Below, in pieces: positions 2,582 to 63,634 of a stretch of 64,000 bases of DNA. A program made the translations under genes and the position numbers. The stretch covers positions 13,741 through 77,740 of the forward strand of contig CAZHNI010000004.1 in the NCBI GenBank assembly GCA_964533715.1, read 5' to 3'. Numbering within the stretch: position 1 is the first letter of the stretch; the number at the start of each line of letters is the position of its first letter. The notes beneath the pieces are model-generated. The model searched no databases and was not told the origin of the DNA. It saw only the letters and a list, made by a program, of their open reading frames with translations. This DNA comes from an uncultured Gammaproteobacteria bacterium (GTDB lineage Bacteria > Patescibacteriota > Patescibacteriia > Magasanikbacterales > GWA2-37-8).

Positions 2582-2714
2582 TGTCATCCCGAGCGAGCGA
2601 AGCGACGAGCCTGCCTCCTGCATGCGCAGGCATGGCGCAGGCAGGGGATCTCTGTCCGTTTCGTCAACTAAACAATTGAGACAGAGATTCCTCCTTCGTC
2701 GTCGGAATGACAGT
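2582..2714. repeat. palindromic mini-element, long form (copy 1)
   Basis: It has TGTCATCCCGAGCG...CGTCGGAATGACAGT terminal inverted arms. The inner hairpin is GGATCTCTGTCCGTT...GAGACAGAGATTCC. The GC-rich core is the palindrome GCCTGCCTCCTGCATGCGCAGGCATGGCGCAGGCAGG. Confidence 0.85.
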
Positions 2715-2768
2715 TAATTTGTTCGCTCCATCCGGAGGTGACATGACGGATAGAGGTCTATAATTTTT

Positions 2769-3434
2769 ATGCCTAACTCAAAGTTTTATCAGTTTATATC
2801 CGCGTTGTTTGTCACCTGTTTAATTATTTCAAATATTATCGCCGTTAAAATTGGTGCGTTTGGCAGTTATTTTTTGCCAGTCGCCGTCATTTTATTCCCC
2901 ATTACATACATCATTGGTGATGTTTTAACAGAAGTCTATGGTTATGCCGCCGCCCGCCACGCCATTTGGATGGGGTTTTTCTGTAACTTGGTGGCAGTTG
3001 TTGCTATTTATATTGGTATCAAAATCACACCCGCGCCGTTTTTTCAAAATCAAGCGGCGTTTGAGCAAATCCTTGGTTTCACTCCACGCCTCCTTGTTGC
3101 CTCGTTTATTGCGTATTTGGTAGGGCAGTTTGTAAATTCTATGGTGCTGGCCAAAATGAAAATAGCCACGAATGGCAAACATTTGTGGATGCGCACGATT
3201 GGTTCCACCATTGTCGGCGAAGGTTTGGATTCCGCTCTTTTTATCTCAATCGCGTTTTGGGGCATAATGCCGCCATCGGTTATTGGTACCCTGATTGTAA
3301 CACAATGGATTTTCAAGACACTGTTTGAAACGGTTGCAACGCCGATAACGTACCTGGTAGTGGGCTATTTGAAGAAAAACGAGAAAATCGATGTGTATGA
3401 TAAGGACACTAATTTTAGTCCAGTCAAAATGTAA
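2769..3434 (+). CDS. queuosine precursor transporter, YhhQ/COG1738 family
   Basis: Polytopic membrane protein with the YhhQ-like motif PITYIIGDVLTEVYGY. It is adjacent to queF. Confidence 0.65.
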   Translation: MPNSKFYQFISALFVTCLIISNIIAVKIGAFGSYFLPVAVILFPITYIIGDVLTEVYGYAAARHAIWMGFFCNLVAVVAIYIGIKITPAPFFQNQAAFEQILGFTPRLLVASFIAYLVGQFVNSMVLAKMKIATNGKHLWMRTIGSTIVGEGLDSALFISIAFWGIMPPSVIGTLIVTQWIFKTLFETVATPITYLVVGYLKKNEKIDVYDKDTNFSPVKM

Positions 3435-3440
3435 TTTAGG

Positions 3441-3834
3441 CTGTCATTTCGAACGAATGTGAGAAATCTCTGTCCGTTATGTCACGCAATCACAATTACT
3501 ATGTTTATTTAATGGCAAGTGTGGCTTATGTGATATATATTGGAGTAACAAATGATCTAGTTCGGAGAGTCGAGGAACATAAGAACAAAATATCAGAAGG
3601 TTTTACTAAAAAATATAATTGTAATAAATTAGTTTACTACGAACATTTCGGCCATATTAATGACGCAATCTATCGAGAAACTGAAATAAAAAAATGGAGA
3701 CGAGAAAAGAAAGTTAAATTAATTGAGAGCGAGAATCCACGATGGAACGACCTGTATGACACCATTACGGACAGAGATTCCCCTAAGAGGGATCGCGAGA
3801 CCCCGTCGGCGCGAGCCTCGCTCGGAATGACAGT
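3441..3834. mobile_element. palindromic mini-element copy whose hairpin loop carries a GIY-YIG nuclease gene
   Basis: The left arm CTGTCATTTCGAACGAATGTGAGAAATCTCTGTCCGTT (3441-3478) is identical over 28 nt to the left arm of the copy at 63492. The right arm ACGGACAGAGATTCC...GCCTCGCTCGGAATGACAGT (3767-3834) matches the same copy's right arm. The GIY-YIG ORF sits exactly between the inner inverted repeats GAGAAATCTCTGTCCGTT and AACGGACAGAGATTCC. Confidence 0.75.
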
Positions 3835-3841
3835 AAAATAA
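3479..3841 (+). CDS. GIY-YIG nuclease family protein (UPF0213/YhbQ-like)
   Basis: The pattern YYVYLMAS...YIGVTNDLVRRVEEHK...KLVYYE matches GIY-YIG/YhbQ-type small nucleases. The C-terminal ~25 aa are encoded by the repeat right arm. Confidence 0.8.
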   Translation: MSRNHNYYVYLMASVAYVIYIGVTNDLVRRVEEHKNKISEGFTKKYNCNKLVYYEHFGHINDAIYRETEIKKWRREKKVKLIESENPRWNDLYDTITDRDSPKRDRETPSARASLGMTVK

Positions 3842-3842
3842 T

Positions 3843-4241
3843 ATGCCTACAAGTAAGAATGATTTAGCAAAACTCACCAAACTTGGTAAGGAAGCAAAAG
3901 CCTCTCGCACGCTGGAAGTGTTCCCAAATCATGCCCCTAAAGGTACCATTGAAGTTACTCTCCACTGCACCGAGTTCACCTGTCGTTGTCCCCTAACGAA
4001 CCAGCCAGATTACGCCGAAATACAAATTACCTACGTGCCGGATAAATTTGTGGTGGAATCAAAATCGTTCAAGTTGTATTTAGAAACGTACCGCGATGAG
4101 GGTGTATTCCACGAACATTTAGCGGTGGATATTGGCAAAGATTTTGTGAAGTTTGTAAAACCAAAAAGTTGTGAAGTGTTAGTTATGTTTAATACACGCG
4201 GAGGCATTGCGATTGACGCGAAGTGGAGTTATAAAAAATAG
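3843..4241 (+). CDS. queF: NADPH-dependent 7-cyano-7-deazaguanine reductase QueF (type I)
   Basis: EFTCRCPLTNQPDYAEI matches the QueF active-site motif (E-F-T-x-x-C-P-x-T-x-Q-P-D), and ~130 aa is typical of the YkvM type. Confidence 0.85.
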   Translation: MPTSKNDLAKLTKLGKEAKASRTLEVFPNHAPKGTIEVTLHCTEFTCRCPLTNQPDYAEIQITYVPDKFVVESKSFKLYLETYRDEGVFHEHLAVDIGKDFVKFVKPKSCEVLVMFNTRGGIAIDAKWSYKK

Positions 4242-4377
4242 TTTGTATGTCTAAAAAGCCTGAACTTAGCGGATTTTTTGGGAGTTTTGTAAAAAAGGCC
4301 AAGGGCGTGATTTTGGCCACGGAAATCGCGCATATTTTAGATGAGGGGGGAGTGGGAGGAAAGAAATAAAGAAAAAT

Positions 4378-4986
4378 ATGTTGTATTTTGTAGTTGGTTT
4401 AACAATTGTTTTGGCTCTCGTGTATATACTGTTGGCTAGTTATTTTAATAAAAAGAAATTTAATAATGATGATTGGCCAAGAGATTTTTTGGAAGACAAA
4501 TTTCTTCGTTTATTTGAATTAGTTGTTTTTGGCCTGGTTGTTACTGTCGCTGGAATTCTTGTGGCAAGATATTGGCAGGCAAGGGACGATAATGATTTGA
4601 AGAAGAGCAAGGTGGATTTGGCTGATGAAATGAATATTTCATCTATATGTAATTTTTCTAAAAATACAATGACAACTAGTACTAAAACCGGAACATACAT
4701 CATAGGGTTACCAAGTGATTCTTTCGAAATATCCATTTATTTTAGTAATGCTGATTATTTATCCAAATTACCCACTTCTACGTATAAAGATTATATTGAA
4801 TGGATTAGGATGTTGCGTGGGGCAAACACCATAGTCGGCGGACTCCCGTTTGTACCCGAAGGAACTGTCTATAAGTATAATACATTTTTGAACGCGATGA
4901 ATGCCGTCGTGTCTAAAATTCCAAAAGAAATTAAGAGCCAAGAATTTTATAAAAAATTAATTAACGAAAAAGGACAATGTTTATAG
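4378..4986 (+). CDS. hypothetical membrane protein (two N-terminal TM helices)
   Basis: Hydrophobic N-terminus and an AT-rich gene with no recognised motif. Confidence 0.35.
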   Translation: MLYFVVGLTIVLALVYILLASYFNKKKFNNDDWPRDFLEDKFLRLFELVVFGLVVTVAGILVARYWQARDDNDLKKSKVDLADEMNISSICNFSKNTMTTSTKTGTYIIGLPSDSFEISIYFSNADYLSKLPTSTYKDYIEWIRMLRGANTIVGGLPFVPEGTVYKYNTFLNAMNAVVSKIPKEIKSQEFYKKLINEKGQCL

Positions 4987-5136
4987 AAAAATCGAACGAT
5001 ATTTCAATAATTATTTAATAGGATTAATAATCTAATTTAATATGAGCAAAGTTTTAGGAACCCGCCTTCGCTACGCTACGGCGAGGCAAGCCGATCTCGT
5101 ATAGCAATTTTATAATCTTTTAATCTTATTTACACT

Positions 5137-7059
5137 ATGTCAAAGGTATTAGGTATAGACTTGGGTACAACTAACAGCTGTGTCGCCATTATTGAAGGCG
5201 GACAGCCAAAAGTATTAGAAAATAAAGAAGGGGCGCGAACAACCCCCAGTATTGTTGCTATTTCTAAATCGGGAGAACGATTGGTGGGGCAATTGGCTAA
5301 GCGTCAGGCGGTTACAAACCCGGAAAATACCCTGTTTTCCATCAAACGTCTTATTGGCCGCAAATGGGAAGATGCCGAAGTCCAGCGCGACCTTAAACTC
5401 ATGCCCTATAAAATTGTTAAGAGCGGCGAAGGTGTTAAAGTAACCATGCAGGGCAAAGATTATTCTCCACAAGAAATTTCGGCCATGGTATTACAAAAAA
5501 TAAAAGCTGATGCCGAAGAACGTTTGGGCGAAAAAGTAACTGAAGCGGTGATTACCGTGCCGGCCTATTTTGATGACGCCCAGCGCCAAGCCACGAAAGA
5601 CGCCGGTGAAATTGCTGGCCTTAAAGTGCTGCGTATTATTAACGAACCAACTGCCGCCGCCTTGGCCTATGGTTTTGATAAGAAAAAAGATGAAAAAATC
5701 GTTGTCTACGATTTGGGTGGTGGCACTTTTGATGTGTCTATTCTGGAAGTTAGTGCTGATTCCGTGCAAGTACTTTCTACAAACGGCGATACACACCTTG
5801 GCGGTGATGATTTTGATCAAGTTATTATTCGTTGGATTATTGATGAATTTAAACGTAGTGAAGGAATTGACTTGAGCAAAGACAATTTGGCGCTCCAACG
5901 TATTAAAGAAGCAGCGGAAAAAGCCAAAATTGAACTTTCAACCGCGCAAGAAAGTGAAATTAATCAACCATTTATTACCTCTGATGCCAATGGTCCAAAA
6001 CACTTGGTAATGAAGTTAACTCGAGCAAAACTAGAAGAACTAGTTGGCGAGTTGGTAGAAAAAACACTTGGTCCGGTGCGTCAGGCATTGTCGGATGCTA
6101 AACTATCGTCTAGCGATCTAAACGAGGTAGTAATGGTTGGCGGTATGACGCGTATGCCGCTTGTACTTCAAACCGTAGAAAAATTCTTTAACAAAAAACC
6201 AAACATTAGTGTAAATCCCGATGAAGTGGTGGCCGTTGGCGCGGCAGTACAAGGCGGTGTGCTCCGTGGTGATGTTAAAGACGTTTTGCTTCTTGATGTT
6301 ATTCCGCTTTCGTTTGGTATTGAAACCATGGGCAGTGTGATGACTAAGCTTATTGAACGTAACACCACCATTCCAACCTCCAAAACCCAAGTATTCTCCA
6401 CCGCGGCCGACAACCAACCGGGCGTGGAAATTCACGTACTCCAAGGCGAGCGACCAATGGCCGCGGACAATAAAACACTGGGACGTTTTATGCTCGACGG
6501 TATTCCACCGGCTCCACGTGGTGTACCGCAAATTGAAGTCAGTTTTGATATTGATGCAAACGGAATTCTTCACGTAAAAGCTAAAGATAAAGCGACCAAC
6601 AAAGAACAATCCATCCGCATCGAATCATCGTCTGGCCTTTCTAAAGAAGAAATTGAGAAAATGAAAAAAGATGCCGAAGCTCATGCCGATGAAGATAAAA
6701 AGAAGCAAGAGCTTATTGAAGCGCGCAACATTGCCGATACGATGGTGTATACCACCGAAAAAATGATGAAGGAAATTGAAGATAAAAAGGTCGCGAGCGT
6801 TACCGATGATGAGAAAAAAGCAGTGACTGAAGCGCTCGCTAAAGTAAAAGAAATAAAAGATAAGGATGATGTGGAAGCTATTAAAAAAGCGGCTGAGGAG
6901 TTATCTAAAGCAGCGCAGGCTGTTGGCACTAAAATGTACCAACAAGAACAGCAAAATAAAGGACCTTCCTCCGCTCCAGGAGGAGCTTCGGACGGCAAGG
7001 CCTCCGGTGAAGATGGCAAAGGGCCAATTGAGGGTGAAGTAGTTGATGATAAGAAGTAA
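5137..7059 (+). CDS. dnaK: molecular chaperone DnaK (Hsp70)
   Basis: Hsp70 signatures are present ([34 protein letters not shown]) and the length is 640 aa. Confidence 0.97.
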
Positions 7060-7084
7060 AAACGGTATAATTTTACCAAAGCGT

Positions 7085-7106
7085 GGGGCGAGAGTTTTCT
7101 CGCCCC
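7085..7106 (+). terminator. GC-rich hairpin after dnaK (GGGGCGAGA-GTTT-TCTCGCCCC) without a clear U-tract
   Basis: Perfect 9-bp stem 25 nt after the dnaK stop, with a weak or absent T-run. Confidence 0.35.
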
Positions 7107-7126
7107 AGCTATATTAAACAGAAAGT

Positions 7127-8078: not shown

Positions 8079-8096
8079 TATTTCAGCTAATACCGT

Positions 8097-9301: not shown

Positions 9302-10414
9302 ATGAAAAAGTCTAATGGAGGGCCAAAAATAGTAATAGCGGTGTGTTTGGTTATACTTATCACGCTTACAATTGTAGCCATGGTGGTTGCCTCAACTCAA
9401 AAAACTTCAGCCAAGTCTGTACTCGATTTAACGCTTAGTAGTTTAAAGCAACAACCAACCATACAAGTAAATGGTATATTAACGGTATTTGATGCGGCTA
9501 AAAAGCCTTTTATTCCCGCGGTATATTTTTCTGTTTCCACGTCTCCGGAAAAAGCCACTGCTCTATGGAAGCTTATTCCACAAAATAATCGTCCAGAAAA
9601 AATTAAGCTCAGTGGCCTTGAAGCTTTGCGTTGGAAAAATACTCTTTCGCTGAATAATTTAAATAGTATTCTCGCCACGTTGTGGCCGCTCTATAAAGGC
9701 AGCAGCTCAACTCCCGAACAAATTGCTTTTTTTAAACCGCCGCTCAAAAAATTAACCGGTATATATGTCCAGCCAGTCATTGGCAAAACAGATTATTTGC
9801 CGCGTCAAATTACACTCGGTTGGTTTGCTTTGCAGGGCAAAAAAACCTATTCAGTTAGAATTGCCTTGCAATTAAGCGGTTTTATTTCACCTCAAAAAAT
9901 AGCCCCAGACAAAAACGCCCAAACGGTAGTAAAATCAGTTACATCTTCACAAGAGCAAACCAGCCAACAAGATAATTTTTTAGCTCAAAACCAACCGGTC
10001 AATTCTCCATCTGCTCCAGGCAGAGCAGTTGATGTATTTGGAAATGGTGGAGTACAATCTAAAATGGTAGACAATCTGGGTGTGTCTGCAGGCCGAGACG
10101 CGCAGCGCCTTAACGATCTCAAAGCGTTGCAAACCGCGCTTGAGTTATATTTTTCTGACCAAGGAGCGTATCCGTCTGGCGTTGGTATTGCGCTTGGGGT
10201 ATCTGGCCACGATTGTTTAAATAGCGATGGTTGGGCTTCGAGTGCCGATTGCCCGTATCCGTATATGATGCGCGTGCCTAAAGACCCAGGGTCGGCTACG
10301 TATGTGTATACACAAACCAATTTATCTTATTATATTGATGCTCAATTGGAAGGCTCACAGAATAGTCTCAGTGAGTCAATTAGGCTAACTCCAGCAGGAA
10401 TTGCAAATCGATAG
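9302..10414 (+). CDS. membrane-anchored protein with a pseudopilin/type IV pilin-like C-terminal domain
   Basis: Has an N-terminal TM helix. The C-terminal segment RDAQRLNDLKALQTALELYFSDQGAYPSG resembles GspG/pilin globular-domain starts, but there is no prepilin leader. Confidence 0.4.
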   Translation: MKKSNGGPKIVIAVCLVILITLTIVAMVVASTQKTSAKSVLDLTLSSLKQQPTIQVNGILTVFDAAKKPFIPAVYFSVSTSPEKATALWKLIPQNNRPEKIKLSGLEALRWKNTLSLNNLNSILATLWPLYKGSSSTPEQIAFFKPPLKKLTGIYVQPVIGKTDYLPRQITLGWFALQGKKTYSVRIALQLSGFISPQKIAPDKNAQTVVKSVTSSQEQTSQQDNFLAQNQPVNSPSAPGRAVDVFGNGGVQSKMVDNLGVSAGRDAQRLNDLKALQTALELYFSDQGAYPSGVGIALGVSGHDCLNSDGWASSADCPYPYMMRVPKDPGSATYVYTQTNLSYYIDAQLEGSQNSLSESIRLTPAGIANR

Positions 10415-13255: not shown

Positions 13256-13259
13256 AAGA

Positions 13260-25695: not shown

Positions 25696-25793
25696 TGTCA
25701 TTCTGAGGGAGTGAAACGACCGAAGAATCTCTGTCCGTTGATGATTGAGACAGAGATCCTTCCCCTCGACTTTACTCGGGGTCAGGATGACAT
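25696..25793. repeat. palindromic mini-element, medium form (copy 3)
   Basis: TTGTCATTCTGAGGGAGTGAAACGACCGAAGAATCTCTGTCCGTT...GAGACAGAGATCC...GGTCAGGATGACATT. It is about 85 percent identical to the copy inside rsmH. The right arm supplies the ATG (25787) of the downstream gene. Confidence 0.85.
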
Positions 25794-28839: not shown

Positions 28840-28953
28840 TGTCATTCCGACCGAAGTGGAGGAATCCCTTGATCCGTGAGTCACAACGGTCAAGCGATTT
28901 CTCGACTCGGCTTTCGCCTCGCCTGTCTGCGCAGGCAGGCTCGAAATGACAGT
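28840..28953. repeat. palindromic mini-element (copy 4)
   Basis: TTGTCATTCCGACCGAAGTGGAGGAATCCC...CTCGACTCGGCTTTCGCCTCGCCTGTCTGCGCAGGCAGGCTCGAAATGACAGT. It has the same terminal arms and a related GC-rich palindromic core. Confidence 0.8.
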
Positions 28954-37390: not shown

Positions 37391-38827
37391 TTGTTTGCCA
37401 TATTGGTATACTTAAGTAATTCAACTATGAAAGTATCTTTTTTTGGTGCCGCCGGCGAAGTTACCGGTTCTTGTAGTCTAATAGAAACAGGGCAAAATAG
37501 CATTCTCATCGATTGCGGAATGTTTCAGGGCAGTGATTTTAACGATGCCAAAAATCATAAACCGCTGCCGTTTGATCCTAAAACGCTCACACATGTTTTT
37601 ATTACTCACGCCCACCTCGATCATACCGGGCGTTTGCCGCTTTTGGTTAAACAAGGTTATAGCGGGTATTTTTATGCTACCGCCCCAACACTCGAGTTGG
37701 CCGAATTGGTTATGAAAGATGCGCACAATATAATGGTCTACGATAATAAAAAATTTGGTCGGACCATTTTATATAGTGAAGAAGATATTGCAGGGGTGAT
37801 GGGAAGAACTAAGGCTGTAAAATACGGAGAGGAGTTGAAATTTGGTGGTATTGTTGGTGAAAGGGATTCTTCGGCTACGCTCCGCTCCGCTCAGAATGAC
37901 AATCTGGTGGTGAGATTTCACGACGTCGGCCACATTTTTGGTTCTGCTTTTATCGAAATTAACGCCGAGGGTAAGAAAATTGTATTCTCCGGAGATGTTG
38001 GTAATGTTCATGTACCTATTTTACGCGATACCGAAGCTTTGCCGAGCAATCTTGACCTTTTAGTTTGTGAGTCAACCTACGGCGACCGCCTGCACGAAGT
38101 TCGCGCCACACGAGAAGAAATGATTGAAGAGGCGATACTCGATGGTGTTGGTAGGGGAGGAGTTCTCATGATTCCTTCGTTTGCTTTGGAGCGCACGCAA
38201 GAATTAATGTATGAACTTAATAAACTCATTGACCACAAACACAAGCTCGGTGGCATTCCCATTTTTTTAGATAGCCCACTCGCTATTGACGCAATTAAAG
38301 TGTATCGCAAATACCCCGAATATTACGACGAAAAAGCCAATGAATATTTTAAAGATGGTGATGATATTTTTGATTTTAAGAACTTAATTACTACATATTC
38401 GCGCGAAGAATCCATGAAAATAAATCATACCCTTGGGCCTAAAGTTATTATTGCCGGTGCCGGCATGATGAACGGGGGTAGAATTTTGCACCACGCTCTT
38501 CGTTATTTATCGGATGCGCGTAACACAATTTTGTTTATTGGTTACCAATCTCCCGGGACGCTGGGCAGACAAATTCAAGACGGTCATTCAACCGTAGAGG
38601 TATTGGGCGAGCGCGTGCAAGTAAAATGCAAAATAAATAATATTAGTGCGCTGTCAGCTCATGGTGATCAAAATAAGCTCGTCAGTTGGATTGGGGCGGC
38701 TAAACCAAAACGTGTTTATTTTAACCACGGGGAAGATAGTGCCGCTCAGGCAATTAGTAGTAAATTATCTAAAGAATTTAATGTGGAAGCAGTTATAGCT
38801 AAACCAAAATTAACTATTCAAGTATAA
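37391..38827 (+). CDS. MBL-fold beta-CASP ribonuclease (RNA-metabolising metallo-beta-lactamase)
   Basis: HxHxDH motif (THAHLDHTGRLP) plus beta-CASP motifs. Confidence 0.8.
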   Translation: MFAILVYLSNSTMKVSFFGAAGEVTGSCSLIETGQNSILIDCGMFQGSDFNDAKNHKPLPFDPKTLTHVFITHAHLDHTGRLPLLVKQGYSGYFYATAPTLELAELVMKDAHNIMVYDNKKFGRTILYSEEDIAGVMGRTKAVKYGEELKFGGIVGERDSSATLRSAQNDNLVVRFHDVGHIFGSAFIEINAEGKKIVFSGDVGNVHVPILRDTEALPSNLDLLVCESTYGDRLHEVRATREEMIEEAILDGVGRGGVLMIPSFALERTQELMYELNKLIDHKHKLGGIPIFLDSPLAIDAIKVYRKYPEYYDEKANEYFKDGDDIFDFKNLITTYSREESMKINHTLGPKVIIAGAGMMNGGRILHHALRYLSDARNTILFIGYQSPGTLGRQIQDGHSTVEVLGERVQVKCKINNISALSAHGDQNKLVSWIGAAKPKRVYFNHGEDSAAQAISSKLSKEFNVEAVIAKPKLTIQV

Positions 38828-38960: not shown

Positions 38961-38990
38961 GCAGGTGGGGAAAAGTGGTGAAACCACGGA
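38961..38990 (+). promoter_or_regulatory. candidate MraZ operator: GTGG repeats at 10-bp spacing (GTGGGGAAAA GTGGTGAAAC CACGG)
   Basis: Direct GTGG repeats with about 10-bp periodicity just downstream of the -10, resembling MraZ-box arrays. Confidence 0.35.
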
Positions 38991-39433
38991 TTTTTTCCAC
39001 GGATATTCACGGATTTTGTATGAGCGAAGAAGGGCTTGTTTTTAAAGAGATAACTCATGAGCTTATCGGTTGCGCCTACACTGTATTTAATGAGCTAAAG
39101 TTTGGCTACAGCGAAAAATATTATCAACGCGCTTACGCTCTTGAACTCCAGAAAAAAGCCCGTTCTTTTGTACGAGAGTTTCCAGTTCCTATTGCGTATC
39201 AAGGATGTTCGATCGGAAGATATATGCTTGATTTTCTGATTGATAACAAGATTATTGTTGAGTTTAAAGTTGGAAATGATTTTTCTCTGCAACATGTAGC
39301 GCAAGTTCTTGGATATCTCAAGGCTCTTAACAAAAAATTGGCGTTGATTATTCTGTTTTCTCCACACGGTGTAAAAGTTAAACGAATAATCAATTGATCG
39401 AATCCGTGTAAATCAGTGTAAAAGATCCGTGGT
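38981..39433. repeat. inverted-repeat-bounded cassette carrying a GxxExxY gene
   Basis: The left arm is CCACGGATTTTTTCCACGGATATTCACGGATT (38984-39016). The right arm is AATCCGTGTAAATCAGTGTAAAAGATCCGTGG (39401-39432), the imperfect reverse complement. The cassette lies between the promoter/MraZ boxes and the mraZ ATG. Confidence 0.5.
39020..39397 (+). CDS. GxxExxY protein (PD-(D/E)XK nuclease-like fold family)
   Basis: HELIGCAYTVFNELKFGYSEKYYQRAYALEL...FLIDNKIIVEFK matches the GxxExxY family. The ORF track starts at a GTG at 38975; an ATG at 39020 is also possible. Confidence 0.75.
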   Translation: MSEEGLVFKEITHELIGCAYTVFNELKFGYSEKYYQRAYALELQKKARSFVREFPVPIAYQGCSIGRYMLDFLIDNKIIVEFKVGNDFSLQHVAQVLGYLKALNKKLALIILFSPHGVKVKRIIN

Positions 39434-39942: not shown

Positions 39943-40956
39943 ATGCGCCACGTTCCAGTTCTACTTAATGAAGTAATTGCTGCCTTAGAGCCAAAATCTG
40001 GGATGAATTTTGTTGATTGTACTCTAGGCGATGGCGGTCATGCTGAAGCTATTTTGGAAAAAATAGCCCCGAGTGGAAAGTTGCTTGGAATCGACGCCGA
40101 TCCAGAATCACTCCTTCGCGCTAAACAATATTTGTACCGTTTTGGAGAGCGTGCTATGTATGTCCGCGATAATTTCGTACACATGAAAAAAATTGTTGCT
40201 GAAAACAATTTTGGTCATGTTGACGGAATACTTATGGATTTAGGTTGGTCAAGTCCGCAGTTTGCGGAACGGGGGAGAGGGTTTAGTTTCGAGAAGGATG
40301 AAAAATTAGACATGCGGTACGACCCCAACTGTCATTCTGAGGGAGGAACGACCGAAGAATCTCTGGCTCATTTGGAGAACGGGCAGAGATCCTTAATTCC
40401 GCTCAGGATGACATGTGAAACAGCTGCGGAGATAGTGAACGGTTATTCTGAAACAGAACTAAATCACATTTTTAAAACGTACGGTGAAGAAAAATTGTAC
40501 AAAGAAATTGCCGAAGCGATTGTTGCTACAAGGAACAAGGAACAAGGAACAAATAACAAAATCGAAACGACAAAACAATTAGTGGATATTATTTTGGAAG
40601 TTTACCGTAACAAATTAAATAGCACTAAAGAAATTCCCTGGATTGGTGGAATTCACCCGGCCACCAAGGTGTTTCAAGCTCTCCGCATTGAGGTTAACCA
40701 GGAATTAGCTGTTTTAAAAGAAGTTTTACCGCAATTAGTTGAAATTCTTTCTCCCGGTGGCCGTTTAGCAGTTATAACTTTCCACTCGTTGGAAGACAGA
40801 ACAGTAAAACAGTTTTTTCAAACAATAGCACATAAACAAATAAAATTAATTAATAAAAAACCGCTCACCGCAAGCGCAAAAGAATTAGCGGACAATTCAC
40901 GATCGAGAAGCGCAAAATTGCGAGTAGTGGAAAAAATAAATGAAAATAAAAATTAA
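39943..40956 (+). CDS. rsmH: 16S rRNA (cytosine1402-N4)-methyltransferase RsmH, with an in-frame ~29-aa palindromic-element insertion
   Basis: VPVLLNEV, DCTLGDGGHA, the FSF...LDMRYDP motif and TFHSLEDR are present. Residues ~129-158 (NCHSEGGTTEESLAHLENGQRSLIPLRMTC) are encoded by a repeat copy. Confidence 0.9.
   Translation: MRHVPVLLNEVIAALEPKSGMNFVDCTLGDGGHAEAILEKIAPSGKLLGIDADPESLLRAKQYLYRFGERAMYVRDNFVHMKKIVAENNFGHVDGILMDLGWSSPQFAERGRGFSFEKDEKLDMRYDPNCHSEGGTTEESLAHLENGQRSLIPLRMTCETAAEIVNGYSETELNHIFKTYGEEKLYKEIAEAIVATRNKEQGTNNKIETTKQLVDIILEVYRNKLNSTKEIPWIGGIHPATKVFQALRIEVNQELAVLKEVLPQLVEILSPGGRLAVITFHSLEDRTVKQFFQTIAHKQIKLINKKPLTASAKELADNSRSRSAKLRVVEKINENKN
40329..40414. repeat. palindromic mini-element (copy 5) inserted in-frame within rsmH
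   Basis: ACTGTCATTCTGAGGGAGGAACGACCGAAGAATCTCTGGC...GGGCAGAGATCC...GCTCAGGATGACATGT, about 85 percent identical to the copy at 25696. There is no stop codon in the rsmH frame. Confidence 0.85.
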
Positions 40957-41459: not shown

Positions 41460-41921
41460 TTAATGAATTGAGGAGAGAATTGTTTGTTCTAATTTATTTG
41501 GTTCATCTGTGCCTATTCGGTGCGTTGTGCCATTTTTTAGTTTTATTTCCACCGCCTCAAAACCAGAGACATTGTAAATCCAGCGTTTGGGCCAGAGAGA
41601 CAATCGTACGCCCCAACCGCAGTACCAATGATTTTTTACGCTTTTCGCTGTGGTGATTTCGGTTAAAGGAAATTTTTTACGAAAAATGCCATAGCCAAAT
41701 TTGATACGTAAGTATTTTTCATCAATAGTTACTTGAAGTGATACAAACGAAGCCAGAACGAAGACTATTAATGTCATTATGGTAGTAATGGCAAAATTTG
41801 TGCCGGAGTTTGGCGAGGGTGGCTCCATTCTGGCGGTAATTTGTAGCCAAGCAAAAAGTGCCAGTACAGCCAGCGTAATAACTATCATTAGGTAGCCAAT
41901 TTGTGTGTGTTTGTAATTCAT
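41460..41921 (-). CDS. membrane protein with bacterial PH-like domain (2 TM + soluble domain)
   Basis: Topology only. Confidence 0.35.
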   Translation of the reverse strand: MNYKHTQIGYLMIVITLAVLALFAWLQITARMEPPSPNSGTNFAITTIMTLIVFVLASFVSLQVTIDEKYLRIKFGYGIFRKKFPLTEITTAKSVKNHWYCGWGVRLSLWPKRWIYNVSGFEAVEIKLKNGTTHRIGTDEPNKLEQTILSSIH

Positions 41922-42027
41922 ACAATTGTAGTTTCCTAGTTATCGTGTTTTTTTCGGTTCCTTCTCTCTTTGAGCAGAGGCCTAATTTTGGTAAACCGAA
42001 CCCTTATTTCAAGAATAGTCAACTTTT

Positions 42028-43353
42028 TTATTTTTCTTTTAAATATTGATATAAAGCTATGGCCAATTCACTCCGAGTGAGTTTTTTGGCTGGCTGAAGA
42101 GAGATGGTGTCTCGCCCCGGGAATAAGAGATATTTTTCTACAATTCCGGCGTAGTTGGACATTGCAGAATTAGCCGGAATGTCGGTATAGTTGTATGAAA
42201 GTTTATTTGGTAAATTTTCCACTTTAGCTAACATTACCAAAAAATCGATTGTGTTAATTTGATCGTTCGGACGTGGTGCTAATCCTAATCCCGCGCCCTT
42301 TATGTGAAGTGATAGCAAGTTAGAAGCTTTAACGTTCTTTATTGTGCTCACAGAAATACCATTGTGTAAAGTTATGAGCATGCTAGCAAGCTCTTCGCGT
42401 GTCACTTTTTCTGATCCTTTAAATTCGCCATTTGGTTTAGCGGTTATCACACCACGACGAAATAATTCAGCGGCGGCTTTGCCTTCATTTGTCTGTAGAT
42501 CGATATCCGGAAATGGAGACACAAATTTGCTAAAATCGGAAAGCACGGTTTCGCCTTGGGTGGCAGTTGGCAAAACACTCAAAGTTTTCGATAGAAACTC
42601 TCTTTCTGCGGCATATATGCGCGCTTCGAGTGGTGCAAAATAAGTATCGTAATAATATTGTATCTGCTGTTTTTTGGTGGCTTTATTTAATCCCAGCTTC
42701 AGCGCGCCATTTAAGGTTTTGGCAATAATATTTTTATAAGAGAAAATGCAAGTGACAAATCGATACTGATTATAGGCGTTGCCATCGCCGCATATCAAAA
42801 TTTTATTTGGCGTTTTTATTTGAATATATGGAATTTCTGGGGCATTTGCCATATAATTTGGCGATTCTGGGTCTAACATGTCCTGGGCGCTTTGGATGGA
42901 ATTGATTTTTGAAACAGCATAATTAGTAACAGTATTTAACCAATATTTTTTTTCTTTGGCTATTGGATTTTTGTTATATTTTGGACAAGGGTGTCCATAA
43001 CCATCTGGTCCAGCAGCCGAGTAGGAGTTTTGTATATAACTTTCAATGCTAGTAATACCGTCAATCCGTTCCGACTCTGGCTTTAAGAGGGCATTATAAT
43101 AAAAATTGAGTTCGTCAAAAAGAATTTTTTCCGTACCTATAAAAGTACAGGCGGGGAAAGCAACGGTTTTGATGTCAATATTTATGGAGCCGTCATCAGC
43201 CACAGTAAGTGAGTCTGCTTTGGCTGTCTTGGAACCAAAAATCACAGTTAGTGATATTGTGGTTATTAAAGTTATCAATAAATATTTTTTCATATTAGAC
43301 TGCATATAATTAGTTATCGGAAGTAAATAATTGTTTTTTTGTTTTTTCGCCAA
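42028..43353 (-). CDS. secreted protein with C-terminal SLH-like repeats
   Basis: Has a signal peptide. VTREELASMLITL and LTRSELAIALYQYL resemble S-layer homology motifs. Confidence 0.4.
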   Translation of the reverse strand: MAKKQKNNYLLPITNYMQSNMKKYLLITLITTISLTVIFGSKTAKADSLTVADDGSINIDIKTVAFPACTFIGTEKILFDELNFYYNALLKPESERIDGITSIESYIQNSYSAAGPDGYGHPCPKYNKNPIAKEKKYWLNTVTNYAVSKINSIQSAQDMLDPESPNYMANAPEIPYIQIKTPNKILICGDGNAYNQYRFVTCIFSYKNIIAKTLNGALKLGLNKATKKQQIQYYYDTYFAPLEARIYAAEREFLSKTLSVLPTATQGETVLSDFSKFVSPFPDIDLQTNEGKAAAELFRRGVITAKPNGEFKGSEKVTREELASMLITLHNGISVSTIKNVKASNLLSLHIKGAGLGLAPRPNDQINTIDFLVMLAKVENLPNKLSYNYTDIPANSAMSNYAGIVEKYLLFPGRDTISLQPAKKLTRSELAIALYQYLKEK

Positions 43354-43372
43354 TCAATATGTATGTATCTAT

Positions 43373-44131
43373 TTAAGCATTTTTACACCATGCACAATCT
43401 TGCTTGTGTAATAAATTTTCAACGTAATCTGTCTTCCTTTTTTCTTCATCATCTTCATGTTCAATCAGCCTTTTGATCGTATCAATAATCCGTTTTCCAA
43501 CTATTGGTGCGTTTTTTAGTAAATTTGTATAAGAATATCTGCTTGATAGCAGGTGATGTATTAAATGATTTCTGTATTTATAAAATTTTTGAATTTCTTT
43601 CGGTAAATCATAGGCAGTCCATAAATTTTTATCTGTATGTTTTAAAATTGCATCAGCGACACTTCCGAGCGTCATTCCACTCACATCAAATAAGAAATAT
43701 GGATTAAAAATTACATCTTCCTTTTTCTGTATCTTATCTGAAATTTTTTTACGTTCATTAAATTTGTTATTTAGATATTTTTTTGCTTTTTTAATTTTCC
43801 AATTATTATATCTACAAACGTTATCTAAAATCCCATCCATTATTTTTTCAGTATCCATTTTATTTTTTTTGTACAAAACACTCAAAAGGTGGCATGTAAG
43901 TTGCTCAATTAATAGACTTTCATTAAATATTTGATATTCCAGCCAAAAATTCCTCATCATTTTATTTACTACCTTTTTATCAGAATGCTGTTTTAGTCTG
44001 TATTCCAAATCAATAAAGCCCGCTGCCTCCAAAATGTTTTGGGCGTTGAAATATCTGGTAAAACCAAGACAAAATTTATTGTCACTGTGTTTGCCGCCAA
44101 TTTTTTTAACTCTGAGCACAAGATTCCACAC
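43373..44131 (-). CDS. hypothetical protein with a HEPN-like R-N-x3-H motif (KYRNHLIHH), in an AT-rich islet
   Basis: Very AT-rich, K-rich protein with a C-terminal RNHLIH motif typical of HEPN RNase or Abi-type proteins. Family assignment is uncertain. Confidence 0.3.
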   Translation of the reverse strand: MWNLVLRVKKIGGKHSDNKFCLGFTRYFNAQNILEAAGFIDLEYRLKQHSDKKVVNKMMRNFWLEYQIFNESLLIEQLTCHLLSVLYKKNKMDTEKIMDGILDNVCRYNNWKIKKAKKYLNNKFNERKKISDKIQKKEDVIFNPYFLFDVSGMTLGSVADAILKHTDKNLWTAYDLPKEIQKFYKYRNHLIHHLLSSRYSYTNLLKNAPIVGKRIIDTIKRLIEHEDDEEKRKTDYVENLLHKQDCAWCKNA

Positions 44132-44296
44132 TATAATTAAGTAAAATTTGTCACATTGTAATCACCGATCACAAAAACAATTATTTATTTCAGCTACTTA
44201 TATCCCAACTAGTGTTTAAATTAGCTAAAATATAATAAAATTTTTTTATAAATGGGGTTATAGCCATTGGGTGGGGTATAACCGTCGTTGTGGATT

Positions 44297-44319
44297 CCCG
44301 TTTTCACGGGAATGACAGT
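44297..44319. repeat. terminal fragment of the palindromic element (CCCGTTTTCACGGGAATGACAGT)
   Basis: Matches the right-arm consensus (GGAATGACAGT) with a short hairpin and has no left arm. Confidence 0.5.
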
Positions 44320-50983: not shown

Positions 50984-52435
50984 TTAAAATTGTGGAATTG
51001 GTGGGGGAGAAGATTCAACTGGTTTAGCAAAAGCGGATTTTGGTTTTAAAGCTCCCGAGCTCTGGTCGTTATAGTGTGTTTCTAAATTCCTAAACGAAGC
51101 TAGAGTTTCGTTAAAAGCAACTTTAACGAGTCCGGTAGGACCATTGCGATGCTTGGCGATATGAATTTCTGCCAGATTTCTTTCATCCGGCGGTATGTCT
51201 TCCATTCGGTAGTTACGATCGGCTGATTTGCGATAAATAAAAATGACGACGTCAGCATCCTGTTCAATGGAACCAGATTCGCGCAGGTGTGAAAGTTTTG
51301 GAATAGCTGGTTTACTTTGTTCCACCACGCGTGAAAGCTGAGAGAGCGCCAGAACCGGAATGTTAAGCTCACGCGCAATACCTTTAAGGCCACGAGTAAT
51401 TTCGGCAATTTCTTGGGTACGGTTATCGTTAGAGGAATGCGATTCCATAAGCTGTAAATAGTCTACCACAATAAGACCAAGTCCATGCTCTGCCTGGAGA
51501 CGTCGCGCTTTTGTTCTAATTTGCATTATATTTACATTGGGGGCGTCATCAATAAAAATAGGCGATTCGGATAAAACACCAATTGCGTGTCCAATGCGCG
51601 GGAAATCATCATCTTCTGGTCGGTCAGAAAGCCTGCCGGTGCGCATTTTCCACAAATCAACGCCAGCTTCGGAGCAAAGCATTCTATCAACTAGTTGTTC
51701 TTTGCTCATTTCAAGAGAGAACAGCCCAACCGGCACTTTTTGTTTGGTGGCAACATTGCGTACAATATCGAGGGCAAATGAAGTTTTTCCAACACTCGGG
51801 CGGGCGGCCAAAATAACCAAATCAGATTTTTGAAGGCCGGCTAATAAATTATCGAGCTGTTTAAAACCGGTTGGTACGCCGCGCAGTTGCCCTTTATTTT
51901 TGTGCAATTCGTCAATGCGGTCAAAAGCATCCGCAAGCACCCCGCGAATGGGGGTAAAAGCCTGTTTAAAATAAATATTGGAAACTCCAAATAAATGACG
52001 TTGGGCCTCGTCAAGCAATTCTTCAATGTTATCTTGTTCTTCGAGGTAGGCTAAGCGGGAAATTTCGTATGACGAAGTTAACAGCCGTCGCCGAGTAGCT
52101 TTGCGATGAATAATATGGCCATAATTTACCACGTTTGAGGCTGTTGGCACGGCGTTGGTGAGGGCAGCGAGGTATGCTCTGCCACCAATCATCTCTAAAT
52201 GCCCTTTTTCTTCCAACCGAGTTGAGAGAGTCAAAAGATCAATGGGGTCATTTTTGCCGTAAAGTTCTAAAATACATTCAAAAATTTTAACATGAGCATT
52301 TTTATAAAAATCTTCCGGCGTTACGATATCAGCCACCTTAAGAATTGCTTCTTTATCAATTAAAAGCGAGCCTAAAAAAGACATTTCGGCTTCCAAACTT
52401 TGCGGCGGAATTTTTTCAATTTCATCTGTGGGCAT
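50984..52435 (-). CDS. dnaB: replicative DNA helicase DnaB
   Basis: Has the N-terminal domain (SLEAEMSFLGSLLID), Walker A (ARPSVGKTSFALDI) and the RecA-like C-terminus. Confidence 0.9.
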   Translation of the reverse strand: MPTDEIEKIPPQSLEAEMSFLGSLLIDKEAILKVADIVTPEDFYKNAHVKIFECILELYGKNDPIDLLTLSTRLEEKGHLEMIGGRAYLAALTNAVPTASNVVNYGHIIHRKATRRRLLTSSYEISRLAYLEEQDNIEELLDEAQRHLFGVSNIYFKQAFTPIRGVLADAFDRIDELHKNKGQLRGVPTGFKQLDNLLAGLQKSDLVILAARPSVGKTSFALDIVRNVATKQKVPVGLFSLEMSKEQLVDRMLCSEAGVDLWKMRTGRLSDRPEDDDFPRIGHAIGVLSESPIFIDDAPNVNIMQIRTKARRLQAEHGLGLIVVDYLQLMESHSSNDNRTQEIAEITRGLKGIARELNIPVLALSQLSRVVEQSKPAIPKLSHLRESGSIEQDADVVIFIYRKSADRNYRMEDIPPDERNLAEIHIAKHRNGPTGLVKVAFNETLASFRNLETHYNDQSSGALKPKSAFAKPVESSPPPIPQF

Positions 52436-57685: not shown

Positions 57686-57693
57686 TTTGTTAA

Positions 57694-57731
57694 CTGTCAT
57701 TTCACTGCGCTACGCTCCAGTCGGAATGACA
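57694..57731. repeat. palindromic mini-element, minimal form (copy 6; ACTGTCATTTCACTGCGCTACGCTCCAGTCGGAATGACAAT)
   Basis: Only the terminal arms plus a short core. The right arm contains an in-frame ATG for the downstream gene. Confidence 0.7.
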
Positions 57732-57746
57732 ATTAAAGTAATTTGT

Positions 57747-58457: not shown

Positions 58458-58459
58458 TC

Positions 58460-59029: not shown

Positions 59030-59041
59030 CAACTTAACAAA

Positions 59042-61207: not shown

Positions 61208-61332
61208 AATTGTTAAAGTTAGATTGAAAAAGGTAGCATTGTAAATGTTGTCTTTCCAGTCTACTAGCTTAATTGACGTAGTGAGTTGGATCACACGAAA
61301 AGTGTAAAAAATTTTCCGACAGGTTGTAAATT

Positions 61333-62403
61333 ATGGAAAAAATTCAAATAATTTTCACTCGTGACTTTGATCAATGGATACAAGAAATGATTCGTAATTC
61401 TCTTGTTGTTGGGGTCAAGACAATTTGGGGAATTAGTTTTTCTGATCAGATTGTTCATTTTAATGGTAAAACTTTTACTTGGTACCGTTATGATGATGAT
61501 ATGCTCAGAGTTAAAAATTTTTTAATCAGCCATCCGCTAGATGAATATATTTTTAGTGAACAAAGTCAGAAAATATTTTTAGAACGAGTTGCTGAATTAA
61601 GAACAATGAGTAGCGTGCCTCCTCGTAGCATTCTTAATAATTCCGAATATTTACAAAAAATTACAGACCTTTTCGTTAAAATGTACCCATACTATCCATT
61701 GGGTATTTTTATTCCAGGCCATTGGCGACAAGAATTTTTGCAGCTTCATGGTAAGGATGGAGAAAAAATACTGAAGAGACTTTATAATAGCCGTACACGC
61801 AGCGAGGGACTCCTTAAAGAAGTTGGAAATTTTTTAAGAGCCTGGCTTTCACCTGCCTTAGAACAGCATAGTTATTTAACTGAATATGTTAGACTCCTGA
61901 CCGTGGGAGAAATTAAAAATTTAGTAGAAAATAATTTGTTACCAGAACGAAACGTTTTAGAAGAAAGAGGCAAAGGTTACGTTTATTTTGATAATGAAAT
62001 TTTTCCAATAACTAACTTTGAAGAATTTTTAGAACAGCACAATTTGTTTTTACCCAACAATTTATCTAGTGATGAGAGTGGTTTTTGTAAAGGCACGGTG
62101 GCCTACCCTTTTTCTGGTCTACTGGAAGGCAAGGTGCAACTCATGTATAATTCTTACGATGTTAACGGTTTTAAACCAGGCTCTATATTAGTGACTCCAA
62201 TGACATCGCCTGAATATTTACCAGCCATGAAAAAAGCTAAAGCTATTATTACCGATGAAGGAGGTCTAACCTGCCATGCCGCTATTGTGTCGCGAGAATT
62301 GGGCGTTCCCTGTATTATTGGCACCAAGATTGCCACACAGGTTTTAAAAGACGGTGATATGGTAGAAGTTGATGCAGAGAAGGGGATAGTAAGAAAAATT
62401 TAA
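61333..62403 (+). CDS. protein with C-terminal PEP-utilising-enzyme mobile (phosphohistidine swivel) domain and unknown N-terminal domain
   Basis: The C-terminal ITDEGGLTCHAAIVSRELGVPCIIGT matches PF00391. The N-terminal ~270 aa are uncharacterised. Confidence 0.7.
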   Translation: MEKIQIIFTRDFDQWIQEMIRNSLVVGVKTIWGISFSDQIVHFNGKTFTWYRYDDDMLRVKNFLISHPLDEYIFSEQSQKIFLERVAELRTMSSVPPRSILNNSEYLQKITDLFVKMYPYYPLGIFIPGHWRQEFLQLHGKDGEKILKRLYNSRTRSEGLLKEVGNFLRAWLSPALEQHSYLTEYVRLLTVGEIKNLVENNLLPERNVLEERGKGYVYFDNEIFPITNFEEFLEQHNLFLPNNLSSDESGFCKGTVAYPFSGLLEGKVQLMYNSYDVNGFKPGSILVTPMTSPEYLPAMKKAKAIITDEGGLTCHAAIVSRELGVPCIIGTKIATQVLKDGDMVEVDAEKGIVRKI

Positions 62404-62404
62404 T

Positions 62405-63490
62405 ATGTCACACCTCAAATTTTTTAAAGATATTACCAAATCAAGTGTCGCCGAAGCCGGAGGTAAAGGTGCCTCACTTGGTGAAATGACTAACGCCGGC
62501 ATCCCAGTGCCGCCTGGTTTTGTAGTTGTAGCCAACGCCTTTGATAGATTTGTGGAAGAGACACTGCTTAAGGAAGAAATTGCGGCACGGCTTAAAGAAG
62601 TAAATCCCGCCGATATCAATACCGTAGATCGCGCCAGCAATGTTATTCGCGATTCTATTAATGACCGCCCCATGCCCAAGGATTTAGAAGATGAAATTCT
62701 TAAGGCGTTTGATGAGTTGCAAGACCTCTCCCTACCCGCTCCTTTGCAAAGGAGAGGGGGCGGCGGCGATTCTTTCTCGCCTCCGCAGAGGAGAGAACGG
62801 GAAGAGAGGTCTGGAAATTTTTTTGTAGCCGTCCGCTCCAGTGCCACTGCGGAAGATTCGTCCGTTGCCAGTTGGGCAGGGGAGTTAGAAACGTACCTTA
62901 ACACCACGCGCGAAAATGTGCTTGAGCGTGTTAAAAAGTGTTGGTCATCTTTATTTACGCCGCGTGCTATTTTTTATCGTCATGAAAAAAATTTAGCTAA
63001 TACGCACGTTTCGGTTGCAGTAGTTATTCAAAAAATGGTACAATCAGAAATCTCGGGCATTGCATTTACCGTCCACCCCGTTACCGAAGATTATGACCAA
63101 ATGATTATTGAGGCTGGCCTCGGCCTTGGTGAAGCAATTGTAAGTGGCCAGGTTACGCCCGATAGTTATGTGGTAAGTAAAAAAGAAATGAGCATACTTG
63201 ATATAAGCGTAAACATACAAACCAAGATGTTGGTTAAGTCAAAAAAGCAACATACCAGTGGAGTAATAAAACAAGTGGTGGCTGAAGACGGTATATCAAA
63301 TGAATGGATTGAATTAAGTGAGACTGAAGGGGGTAAACAAAAACTCACCGGCAAACAAATTATTGAAGCCGCCCAAATTTTTTTGCATATTGAAAAACAT
63401 TATGGTTTTCCGTGCGATATTGAATGGGCATTTGCGGATGGAAAATTTTATATTACGCAGAGCAGGCCGATAACGACACTTAAAAAATAA
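62405..63490 (+). CDS. PEP/pyruvate-binding (ATP-grasp, PPDK_N) domain protein
   Basis: GGKGASLGEMTNAGIPVPPGFVV, VAVRSSATAED and SGIAFTVHP are PEP synthase/PPDK N-terminal motifs. Its start is 2 nt after the previous stop. Confidence 0.75.
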   Translation: MSHLKFFKDITKSSVAEAGGKGASLGEMTNAGIPVPPGFVVVANAFDRFVEETLLKEEIAARLKEVNPADINTVDRASNVIRDSINDRPMPKDLEDEILKAFDELQDLSLPAPLQRRGGGGDSFSPPQRREREERSGNFFVAVRSSATAEDSSVASWAGELETYLNTTRENVLERVKKCWSSLFTPRAIFYRHEKNLANTHVSVAVVIQKMVQSEISGIAFTVHPVTEDYDQMIIEAGLGLGEAIVSGQVTPDSYVVSKKEMSILDISVNIQTKMLVKSKKQHTSGVIKQVVAEDGISNEWIELSETEGGKQKLTGKQIIEAAQIFLHIEKHYGFPCDIEWAFADGKFYITQSRPITTLKK

Positions 63491-63491
63491 T

Positions 63492-63634
63492 TGTCATTTC
63501 GAACGAATGTGAGAAATCCCTGTCTGCGCCATGCCTGCGCATGCAGGAGGCAGGTCTGTTTCACTCAACGGACACTCATCACTATTGTGACAGAGATTCC
63601 TCGTCGGCTGCCAAGCCTCGCTCGGAATGACAGT
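63492..63634. repeat. palindromic mini-element, long form (copy 7, inverted relative to copy 1)
   Basis: TTGTCATTTCGAACGAATGTGAGAAATCCCTGTC...GACAGAGATTCC...GCCTCGCTCGGAATGACAGT. Its core CTGCGCCATGCCTGCGCATGCAGGAGGCAGG is the exact reverse complement of the copy-1 core. Confidence 0.85.

Follow-up and report, generated by a model that had tools for sequence, protein, structure and literature searches.

TGTC-tagged hairpin repeats and an enclosed GIY-YIG nuclease gene in a Candidatus Magasanikbacteria genome: a probable Ssn system in Patescibacteria

A 64-kb stretch of contig CAZHNI010000004.1, referred to below as the window, belongs to a metagenome-assembled genome of Candidatus Magasanikbacteria (Patescibacteria) and contains a family of palindromic mini-elements that a first-pass annotation had listed as seven copies and a fragment. 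The contig is 85,956 bp long, and its DnaK groups at the level of 90% or more with Candidatus Magasanikbacteria. We read each of these copies and found all of them to be present. The mini-elements are head-to-head dimers of oriented, tagged hairpin units, and in one dimer the spacer is itself a gene, named ssn here, for a single-domain GIY-YIG protein. We conclude that the window probably carries an Ssn system, consisting of a gene for a GIY-YIG single-stranded DNA nuclease and of the tagged hairpin repeat cognate to it, which is present in 14 copies and a minimal remnant. This repeat most likely is the CGTC/TGTC-tagged repetitive extragenic palindromic (REP) sequence described by Di Nocera (2013) and the Ssn-related motif (SRM) of Chenal (2025); the first-pass annotation had rightly recognised one family, but had overlooked its identity with these two. 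On this reading, the window contains a known system in a new host lineage, with a locally divergent hairpin, and not a new kind of element. The units and copies are listed below with coordinates and strand, NTS being the repeat that is bound by the nuclease SsnA in Neisseria.

2583..2654, plus: hairpin unit ATCCC/GGGAT, left half of dimer 1 (2582-2714, in the interval between the HSP20 and Vut_1 genes); long loop with a 36-nt GC palindrome
2682..2711, minus: hairpin unit ATTCC/GGAAT, right half of dimer 1; covariance model E 1.9e-8
3443..3472, plus: hairpin unit ATTTC/GAAAT, left end of the ssn cassette (3441-3834); covariance model match
3772..3831, minus: hairpin unit ATTCC/GGAAT with long loop, right end of the ssn cassette; translated as the C-terminal tail of Ssn
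25697..25733, plus: hairpin unit ATTCT/AGAAT, left half of dimer 3 (25696-25793); covariance model E 2.8e-10
25751..25791, minus: hairpin unit ATCCT/AGGAT, right half of dimer 3; covariance model match
28841..28870, plus: hairpin unit ATTCC/GGAAT, left half of dimer 4 (28840-28953); covariance model match
28892..28950, minus: hairpin unit ATTTC/GAAAT, right half of dimer 4; loop with an 18-nt GC palindrome at 28922-28939
37861..37900, minus: solo hairpin unit ATTCT/AGAAT, in frame in the beta-CASP metallo-beta-lactamase gene (37391-38827); covariance model match
40329-40412: dimer 5, 84 nt or 28 codons, inside rsmH
40331..40365, plus: hairpin unit, left half of dimer 5, in frame in rsmH (39943-40956); covariance model match
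40384..40412, minus: hairpin unit ATCCT/AGGAT, right half of dimer 5; covariance model E 1.9e-10
44289..44316, minus: solo second-subtype unit GTCATTCCCGTGAAAACGGGAATCCAC; 8-bp stem, 4-nt loop, nearly Neisseria NTS
57695..57731, no strand assigned: minimal copy, two tagged ends only (TGTCATTTC ... GGAATGACA) around a 19-nt core, with no internal unit stems
63493..63522, plus: hairpin unit ATTTC/GAAAT, left half of dimer 7 (63492-63634), followed by the inverted 36-nt GC palindrome; covariance model match
63591..63631, minus: hairpin unit ATTCC/GGAAT, right half of dimer 7; covariance model E 9.4e-9

Structure and arrangement of the hairpin unit

The motif TGTCATTCCGA, allowing at most one mismatch, matches the window 13 times compared to 0.83 times expected, and 13 matches were reached in none of 100 shuffles. 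Because the published SRM pattern matched one unit only, we defined the unit structurally, as GTC plus ATxyz followed within 70 nt by the exact complement and a C, and checked this definition by shuffles, by the covariation of pairs not used in detection, and with a covariance model. The structural search returned 15 matches versus 0.49 in shuffles, so that the claim of one family of palindromic mini-elements holds far above chance. Fourteen of these matches are genuine units; the match at 52247 is AT-rich and probably fortuitous. Each unit consists, in this order, of the TGTC tag, the half-stem AT-xyz, GA, a variable GC-rich loop, GA, the half-stem z'y'x'-AT, C, and a tail YCTG that is often lengthened to CTCTGTCCGT; the C and the following YCTG or CCTT form a short unpaired 3' tail. 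The stem of the main subtype comprises 5 bp, the GA/GA step and 2 bp (nine positions, seven of them Watson-Crick) and encloses a 3-nt loop in the minimal class, many units having much longer loops. Five stem variants occur, namely ATTCC, ATTTC, ATTCT, ATCCT and ATCCC.

The pairing within each unit was examined across six Patescibacteria loci. The 5' motif GTC-AT[YYY]-GA occurs there 49 times, and in 45 cases it is followed within 75 nt by the exact 5-nt complement of its own half-stem plus C, whereas only 14 of 343 opportunities gave the complement of one of the seven other stem variants. In the minimal 25-nt class, the inner pairs beyond GA/GA, which were not used in detection, show compensatory changes (GC 9, AT 4, GT 1; CG 10, TA 2), and 98% of the cells in the alignment are paired versus 17-45% when the partners are slid. 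The AT/AT stem pairs are invariant in the alignment. The covariance model (R1) was built from 14 short units, one from the window and 13 from related genomes, all of which carry the TGTC tag (alignment columns 4-7 are invariant). Run unfiltered over the window, it recovered 10 units at E values from 2e-10 to 6e-5 and revealed no hidden further copies. An Rfam scan at gathering thresholds matched no family, and a search for tRNA genes found none.

The window holds six head-to-head pairs and two solo units, the tags of each pair pointing outward and the tails facing each other. The partners within a pair always differ in their stem variants, which indicates that selection acts on the local stems and not solely on the large palindrome; it follows that the positions at which each small stem pairs perfectly are those at which the large palindrome does not. 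The terminal inverted arms of the first-pass annotation do exist, but they are the tags and half-stems of two independent units, and what had been taken for an inner hairpin (GAATCTCTGTC...GACAGAGATTC) is formed by the facing 3' tails (CTCTGTC / GACAGAG) of these units. Similarly, the supposed fragment at 44297-44319 turned out to be the complete unit 44289-44316 of the subtype resembling the Neisseria NTS, and the solo unit at 37861-37900 had been missed in a copy list that was otherwise real. The variation in size, which had been called consistent with nested hairpins that can be trimmed, reflects indel-prone loops, nested GC palindromes and the content of the spacer between two discrete units. 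The elements are indeed GC-rich (0.49-0.63 versus about 0.41 for the window), except for the 38-nt left end of the ssn cassette (0.42).

When folded as single strands, the composite copies form whole-element hairpins with z-scores of −2.5 to −4.9 relative to shuffles, and the second-subtype unit at 44289-44316 also has a stable fold (z −3.9). This latter unit lies at the edge of a low-GC block (41460-44131, GC 0.34) of three minus-strand genes, one of them with an SLH domain, and this block is absent in the related contig L004 between the orthologs of genes 40940 and 44812. The 36-nt GC palindrome (CCTGCCTCCTGCATGCGCAGGCATGGCGCAGGCAGG) is found at approximately 2610-2645 and 63519-63554, with an 18-nt relative at 28922-28939, and occurs only nested within elements. 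In the first case it occupies the loop of unit 2583-2654, while in the second it is inverted and lies outside the stem of unit 63493-63522. The two have 31 identical bases, in agreement with the earlier remark that copies 1 and 7 share a core in opposite orientation, and the palindrome may be a separate nested mini-palindrome.

All six intergenic copies are located between co-directional genes. Three units, the solo unit of the beta-CASP gene and both units of dimer 5, reside in frame in coding sequences. The copy annotated at 40329-40414 is thus present, but inside rsmH and not at a gene boundary. More generally, the idea that a position at gene boundaries is a special property of the family is not supported, given these three units and ancestral spacers of 3-5 nt: in a compact genome, any intergenic insert abuts genes.

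The ssn gene and its product

The copy at 3441-3834 had been correctly listed, as a split copy, but the gene that it encloses had been overlooked. This open reading frame (ORF; 3479..3841, plus strand) encodes a 120-residue single-domain GIY-YIG protein in which PF01541 is the sole Pfam domain (E 3.7e-13, residues 6-78), and it is the sole such gene in the window. The start codon lies within the stem CCGTTATG/CATTACGG, and the core of about 96 residues is followed by a tail of about 24 residues that arises by reading through into the right-hand unit. Many homologs likewise end in translated units, with tails such as TDRDPSSARASLGMT. There are more than 8000 homologs, mostly of 95-99 residues, and the closest named ones come from Patescibacteria. 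No match was obtained in an NCBIfam search with the window protein, and the best relative in a PDB sequence search was UPF0213 BH0048, at an E value of only 4e-4.

A tblastn search of PLSDB with the window Ssn identified one place in each of two Neisseria gonorrhoeae chromosomes, where a 94-residue ORF lies among 16 NTS in 3.3 kb. Both sequences (NZ_CP119140.1 and NZ_CP119142.1) are 2.17-Mb chromosomes that are filed as plasmids, and they are the source of the SsnA ortholog and NTS array used here. The window Ssn and this gonococcal ortholog of SsnA are 45% identical (E 2e-25, with 89 of the 94 residues aligned), which, with the gonococcal ortholog as a proxy, falls within the published blastp limits relative to N. 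meningitidis SsnA (E < 1e-10, cover of at least 75%; PMC11893778). All 21 columns that are invariant across 22 family members, the gonococcal protein included, are kept in the window Ssn. The other tblastn matches were in Sinorhizobium, Azospirillum, Novosphingobium and Sphingobium.

Oriented tagged hairpins (3443-3472 and 3772-3831) abut both ends of ssn, although neither is matched by the published degenerate SRM pattern. The layout of a plus-strand unit, CTCTGTCCGT, ssn, GACAGAGATCC and a minus-strand unit recurs in five other Patescibacteria assemblies, so that ssn lies inside one head-to-head pair in all six cassettes (the window, L084, L085, L086, L087 and L099). The family thus exists outside the window in other Patescibacteria assemblies and, in its NTS form, in Neisseria.

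Two of these assemblies contain a second GIY-YIG gene, which is UPF0213-like and located directly 3' of ssn, between genes for an RF-1-domain protein and a PIF1 helicase (L084 10321-10665, L086 9620-9862). In L086 this gene is followed at once by a head-to-head dimer of units resembling the Neisseria NTS (GTCATTCCCGCCGGAGCGGGAATCCAG, 9867-9936), and a similar dimer lies about 2.2 kb beyond the gene in L084 (12868-12933). The combination of a UPF0213-like gene with NTS-like units suggests a second enzyme-repeat pairing.

Gain and loss of repeats at orthologous sites

To compare orthologous sites, syntenic loci of relatives were obtained via homologs of DnaK, RsmH and Vut_1. The junction between Vut_1 and QueF was found in the following states:

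L097 and L098: TAA-aat-ATG, a 3-nt spacer
One further contig: a 3-nt spacer, by gene coordinates only
L003: an 85-nt gene-less dimer
L095 and L096: an unrelated 121-nt palindrome
Window and L099: the ssn cassette

The Vut_1 and Ssn proteins of L099 are each 82% identical to their counterparts in the window, and the two cassettes have the same stem variants at both ends, their loops differing by 12 and 19 nt. The 121-nt palindrome (L095 6279-6399, L096 6667-6787) consists of three copies of ATCCGAAT facing three of ATTCGGAT and is unrelated to the TGTC units, so that one and the same junction is occupied by different palindromic families in different genomes. The spacer between HSP20 and Vut_1, which holds dimer 1 in the window, is 5 nt long in L097.

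The comparison of coding sequences gave a similar picture of presence and absence. The window RsmH has 28 extra codons (TGT CAT ... ATG ACA) in a variable loop that none of the five aligned orthologs has, among them both Magasanikbacteria relatives and more distant ones; here the loop of the window holds the dimer and theirs lack the extra codons. The lepA gene contains a 79-nt dimer in frame in L005 only, this dimer being absent from the window and from L004. The loop of the beta-CASP gene carries the solo TGTC unit in the window, a different GC-rich palindrome in L005 and nothing in L004; the presence of different palindromes marks this loop as an insertion hot spot. The palindrome of L005 (4400-4500; CCCCTCCT..AGGAGGGG twice, within CCACCCC/GGGGGTGG) is also in frame. 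Taken together, the Vut_1-QueF and HSP20-Vut_1 junctions, rsmH and lepA all bear out the presence/absence polymorphism that the first-pass annotation had proposed to look for: orthologous sites gain and lose the repeats, coding loops accommodate them in frame, and the loops of the repeats themselves are indel-prone. The density of units also varies widely, with none in L002 (22 kb) or L004 (21 kb), 2.3 per 10 kb in the window and 5-7 per 10 kb in L084-L086; the value of 11 per 10 kb for L087 comes from a 1.8-kb contig with two units only.

A further ORF in the window (38975-39433, probable start 39021) encodes a PD-(D/E)XK nuclease (PDDEXK_3, E 6e-29) and is bracketed by a 33-nt inverted repeat composed of three copies of CCACGGAT (38983-39015 / 39401-39433). 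It is located between a GTGG-repeat region and mraZ and is absent from the 224-nt spacer between the beta-CASP gene and mraZ in L004. It looks like a second small nuclease gene inside a palindrome of its own.

Interpretation and comparison with known systems

The characterised member of the Ssn family is SsnA of N. meningitidis, a 94-residue single-domain GIY-YIG protein (CDD cd10448; Chenal 2025, Nat Commun, PMC11893778). Binding of SsnA to NTS (CGTCATTCCCGCGMAVGCGGGAATCYRG) requires the repeat to be single-stranded, and the cut falls just upstream, a few nt 5' of the tag; the reverse strand, double-stranded DNA and RNA are not cut, and Ssn-related motifs are found near 71% of Ssn homologs (PMC11893778). 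By homology, the window Ssn would bind the local hairpin of a unit only when the DNA is single-stranded, as during replication, repair or DNA uptake, and would nick a few nt 5' of the tag. A head-to-head dimer would then be nicked once at each outer boundary, one predicted nick per strand, after which host repair or recombination could lead to copying, loss or exclusion of the repeat-bearing DNA, with gene-less dimers presumably depending on Ssn in trans. The data are equally compatible with a restriction of incoming repeat-bearing single strands as in Neisseria.

Several observations weigh against assigning the window to an Ssn system or against the steps proposed for it. The published degenerate SRM pattern matches only one of the 14 genuine units, namely the second-subtype unit (44290-44317), and the meningococcal protein that has been characterised is represented here by the gonococcal ORF. 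Main-subtype units have short local stems: under standard DNA parameters a solo main-subtype unit folds no better than shuffles (z +0.8), and the minimum free energy structures of the composite copies favour the whole-element hairpin. Sheared G·A pairs and GNA mini-hairpins are undervalued by standard energy parameters, and the conserved GA...GA together with loops such as GCGAAGC suggests that such structures may form here. Neither target-site duplications nor exact junctions were derivable from filled versus empty sites, the spacers of the relatives being too divergent and the coding loops variable. The spacers of the gene-less dimers, aligned to the interior of the ssn gene, showed no significant similarity (p 0.15-0.7). 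Lastly, GIY-YIG enzymes are hydrolytic, and a transposase-like strand transfer is unexpected for them; any copying would thus have to come from the host's repair, replication or recombination and not from the chemistry of a transposase. We also considered that the gene-less dimers are internal deletions of the ssn cassette, an idea that is unsupported by the spacer alignment and that we keep only as a possibility.

The strongest alternative is that the repeats act primarily at the RNA level, as terminators, mRNA stabilisers, processing sites or small RNAs, and that the nuclease gene is incidental. The six intergenic copies between co-directional genes would be transcribed, the composites fold stably (the z-scores given above), and many REPs have been argued to function as RNA elements (Di Nocera 2013, PMC3733652). 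We nevertheless regard a primary role of this kind as unlikely, because the elements are not consistently followed by a T-run, Rfam contains no match, the characterised Ssn is inactive on RNA (PMC11893778), and gene and repeat are tightly linked across phyla. In addition, three units are in frame in essential genes, where termination would be lethal. An effect on RNA could be a side consequence of the elements.

The inverted ends, the size of 38-143 nt, the multiple copies and the one longer copy with a gene are also what would be seen with classical miniature inverted-repeat transposable elements, that is, internally deleted insertion sequence copies moved in trans by a DDE-type transposase that recognises their terminal inverted repeats. 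This is very improbable. The enclosed gene encodes a 120-residue GIY-YIG nuclease and not a transposase, and no transposase was found in the subset of window ORFs that was scanned. The supposed terminal repeats are parts of separate hairpin units with covarying stems of their own, and solo units exist (37861-37900 and 44289-44316). The comparison of filled with empty sites revealed no target-site duplications, and the dimer spacers show no significant similarity to the ssn interior. Slightly less probable still is a GTAG-type REP, or a dimer of such REPs (REPIN), mobilised by a REP-associated tyrosine transposase (RAYT) of the IS200/IS605-like Y1 type. Such systems have similar short tagged hairpins, head-to-head dimers that fold into a larger hairpin, and a location 3' of genes; in the window, however, the tag TGTC precedes AT, which marks the CGTC superfamily rather than the GTAG type, the associated gene is of the GIY-YIG rather than the HUH/Y1 type, and CGTC repeats are reported to be unlinked to RAYT genes (PMC3733652). 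A phage origin is unlikely since the type-A pattern of the repeat is rare in viral contigs (7 of 2.9 million in IMG/VR). That chimeric joins or vector-derived sequence in a metagenome-assembled genome produced the elements has a negligible probability, as the family is also represented in independent assemblies from NCBI, ENA and Logan, the flanking gene order is syntenic with sister genomes, and the elements are shorter than a sequencing read.

Within the Ssn interpretation, one more specific idea is that in Patescibacteria the dimer enclosing ssn is an autonomous selfish element and the gene-less dimers are its non-autonomous passengers, nicking at the outward tags, one per strand, starting the copying into new sites that include, in frame, loops of essential proteins. 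We consider this possible, though rather doubtful. If true, Ssn would supply the mobilising enzyme that had long been missing for CGTC-tagged REPs, and a hydrolytic GIY-YIG nuclease would drive a transposition-like process. The locus bears on two published questions, the propagation of CGTC-tagged REPs (2013) and the role of Ssn outside Neisseria (2025). A minimal genome in which one junction is empty, filled by a gene-less dimer, or filled by a dimer with ssn, and the in-frame entry of units into rsmH, a beta-CASP ribonuclease-like gene and the lepA gene of a sister genome, offer natural material for both questions and make that of the spread of the repeats more testable. Patescibacteria are thought to rely heavily on DNA uptake, and it is in this context that Ssn modulates transformation in Neisseria. 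A practical consequence is that surveys based on the published motif pattern undercount these lineages, whose dominant subtype escapes it.

The features of the repeat noted in the first-pass annotation are already described in the literature, the link to the enzyme having been added in 2025. Patescibacteria are absent from the main text of PMC11893778 and from the phyla listed in PMC3733652. As in the published Ssn systems (PMC11893778), the window protein is a single-domain GIY-YIG enzyme with about 95 core residues that is homologous to gonococcal SsnA, and multicopy oriented hairpin repeats that begin with (C/T)GTCAT and end with ATC-YNG stand on both sides of the gene; unit 44289-44316 nearly equals the Neisseria NTS. 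The main subtype of the window differs from Ssn-related motifs in its 5-bp AT-xyz stem, its GA...GA and its loops of 8-50 nt, and about 20% of the units are intragenic compared to 2% reported for N. meningitidis (PMC11893778). Here ssn is placed inside one head-to-head pair, whereas it lies between two pairs in N. gonorrhoeae and Azospirillum lipoferum. On A. lipoferum AZO_p3 (L101, 280-786), the homolog is found between sufB and sufC with a head-to-head dimer of CGTCATCCCCGCGAAGGCGGGGATCCAG on each side. We dropped the placement in one dimer as a Patescibacteria-specific trait, since in Novosphingobium aromaticivorans pNL2 ssn is likewise enclosed in one pair.

The CGTC-tagged REPs carry the tag CGTC, or the variants TGTC and CCTC, at one end only, followed by a stem that starts with A-T and T-A pairs; they have 8-9 bp stems, 4-5 nt loops and short tails with the consensus CCA (Di Nocera 2013, PMC3733652). 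They form mostly head-to-head dimers with the tags outside, frequently heterodimers, with spacers of 20-100 bp, and intragenic dimers encode 20-30 residues. According to the same study, S. meliloti, A. lipoferum and N. aromaticivorans are named carriers and a Sphingobium species is listed, Neisseria dRS3 corresponds to CGTC-1 and Rickettsia RPE-6/RPE-4 to CGTC-1/-4, and these repeats "lack a dedicated transposase", with explicitly no link to RAYT genes. The window units share with them the unpaired tag (TGTC), the stem starting with AT, the short unpaired tail, the head-to-head heterodimers, the spacers of 20-100 nt and the intragenic dimers, and the second-subtype (type-B) unit fits the 8-9 bp stem and 4-5 nt loop exactly. 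They differ in having G/A positions that interrupt the main-subtype stem, very variable loops and a tail sequence unlike CCA. The Rickettsia palindromic elements (Ogata et al.; PMC10969869), compared here by description, likewise sit in frame in loops of housekeeping proteins and leave the reading frame intact; RPE-1, however, is longer (about 150 bp) with an unrelated consensus, and only RPE-4 and RPE-6 are of the CGTC type. Finally, the REP/REPIN-RAYT and IS200/IS605 systems resemble the Ssn system in the recognition of single-stranded DNA hairpins, in head-to-head dimers and in a small nuclease gene with copies of its own repeat on either side (REPtron-like), but their enzyme is an HUH Y1 protein that forms a covalent intermediate whereas Ssn belongs to the hydrolytic GIY-YIG nucleases, and their tag is GTAG with both cuts on one strand whereas one cut per strand is predicted here.

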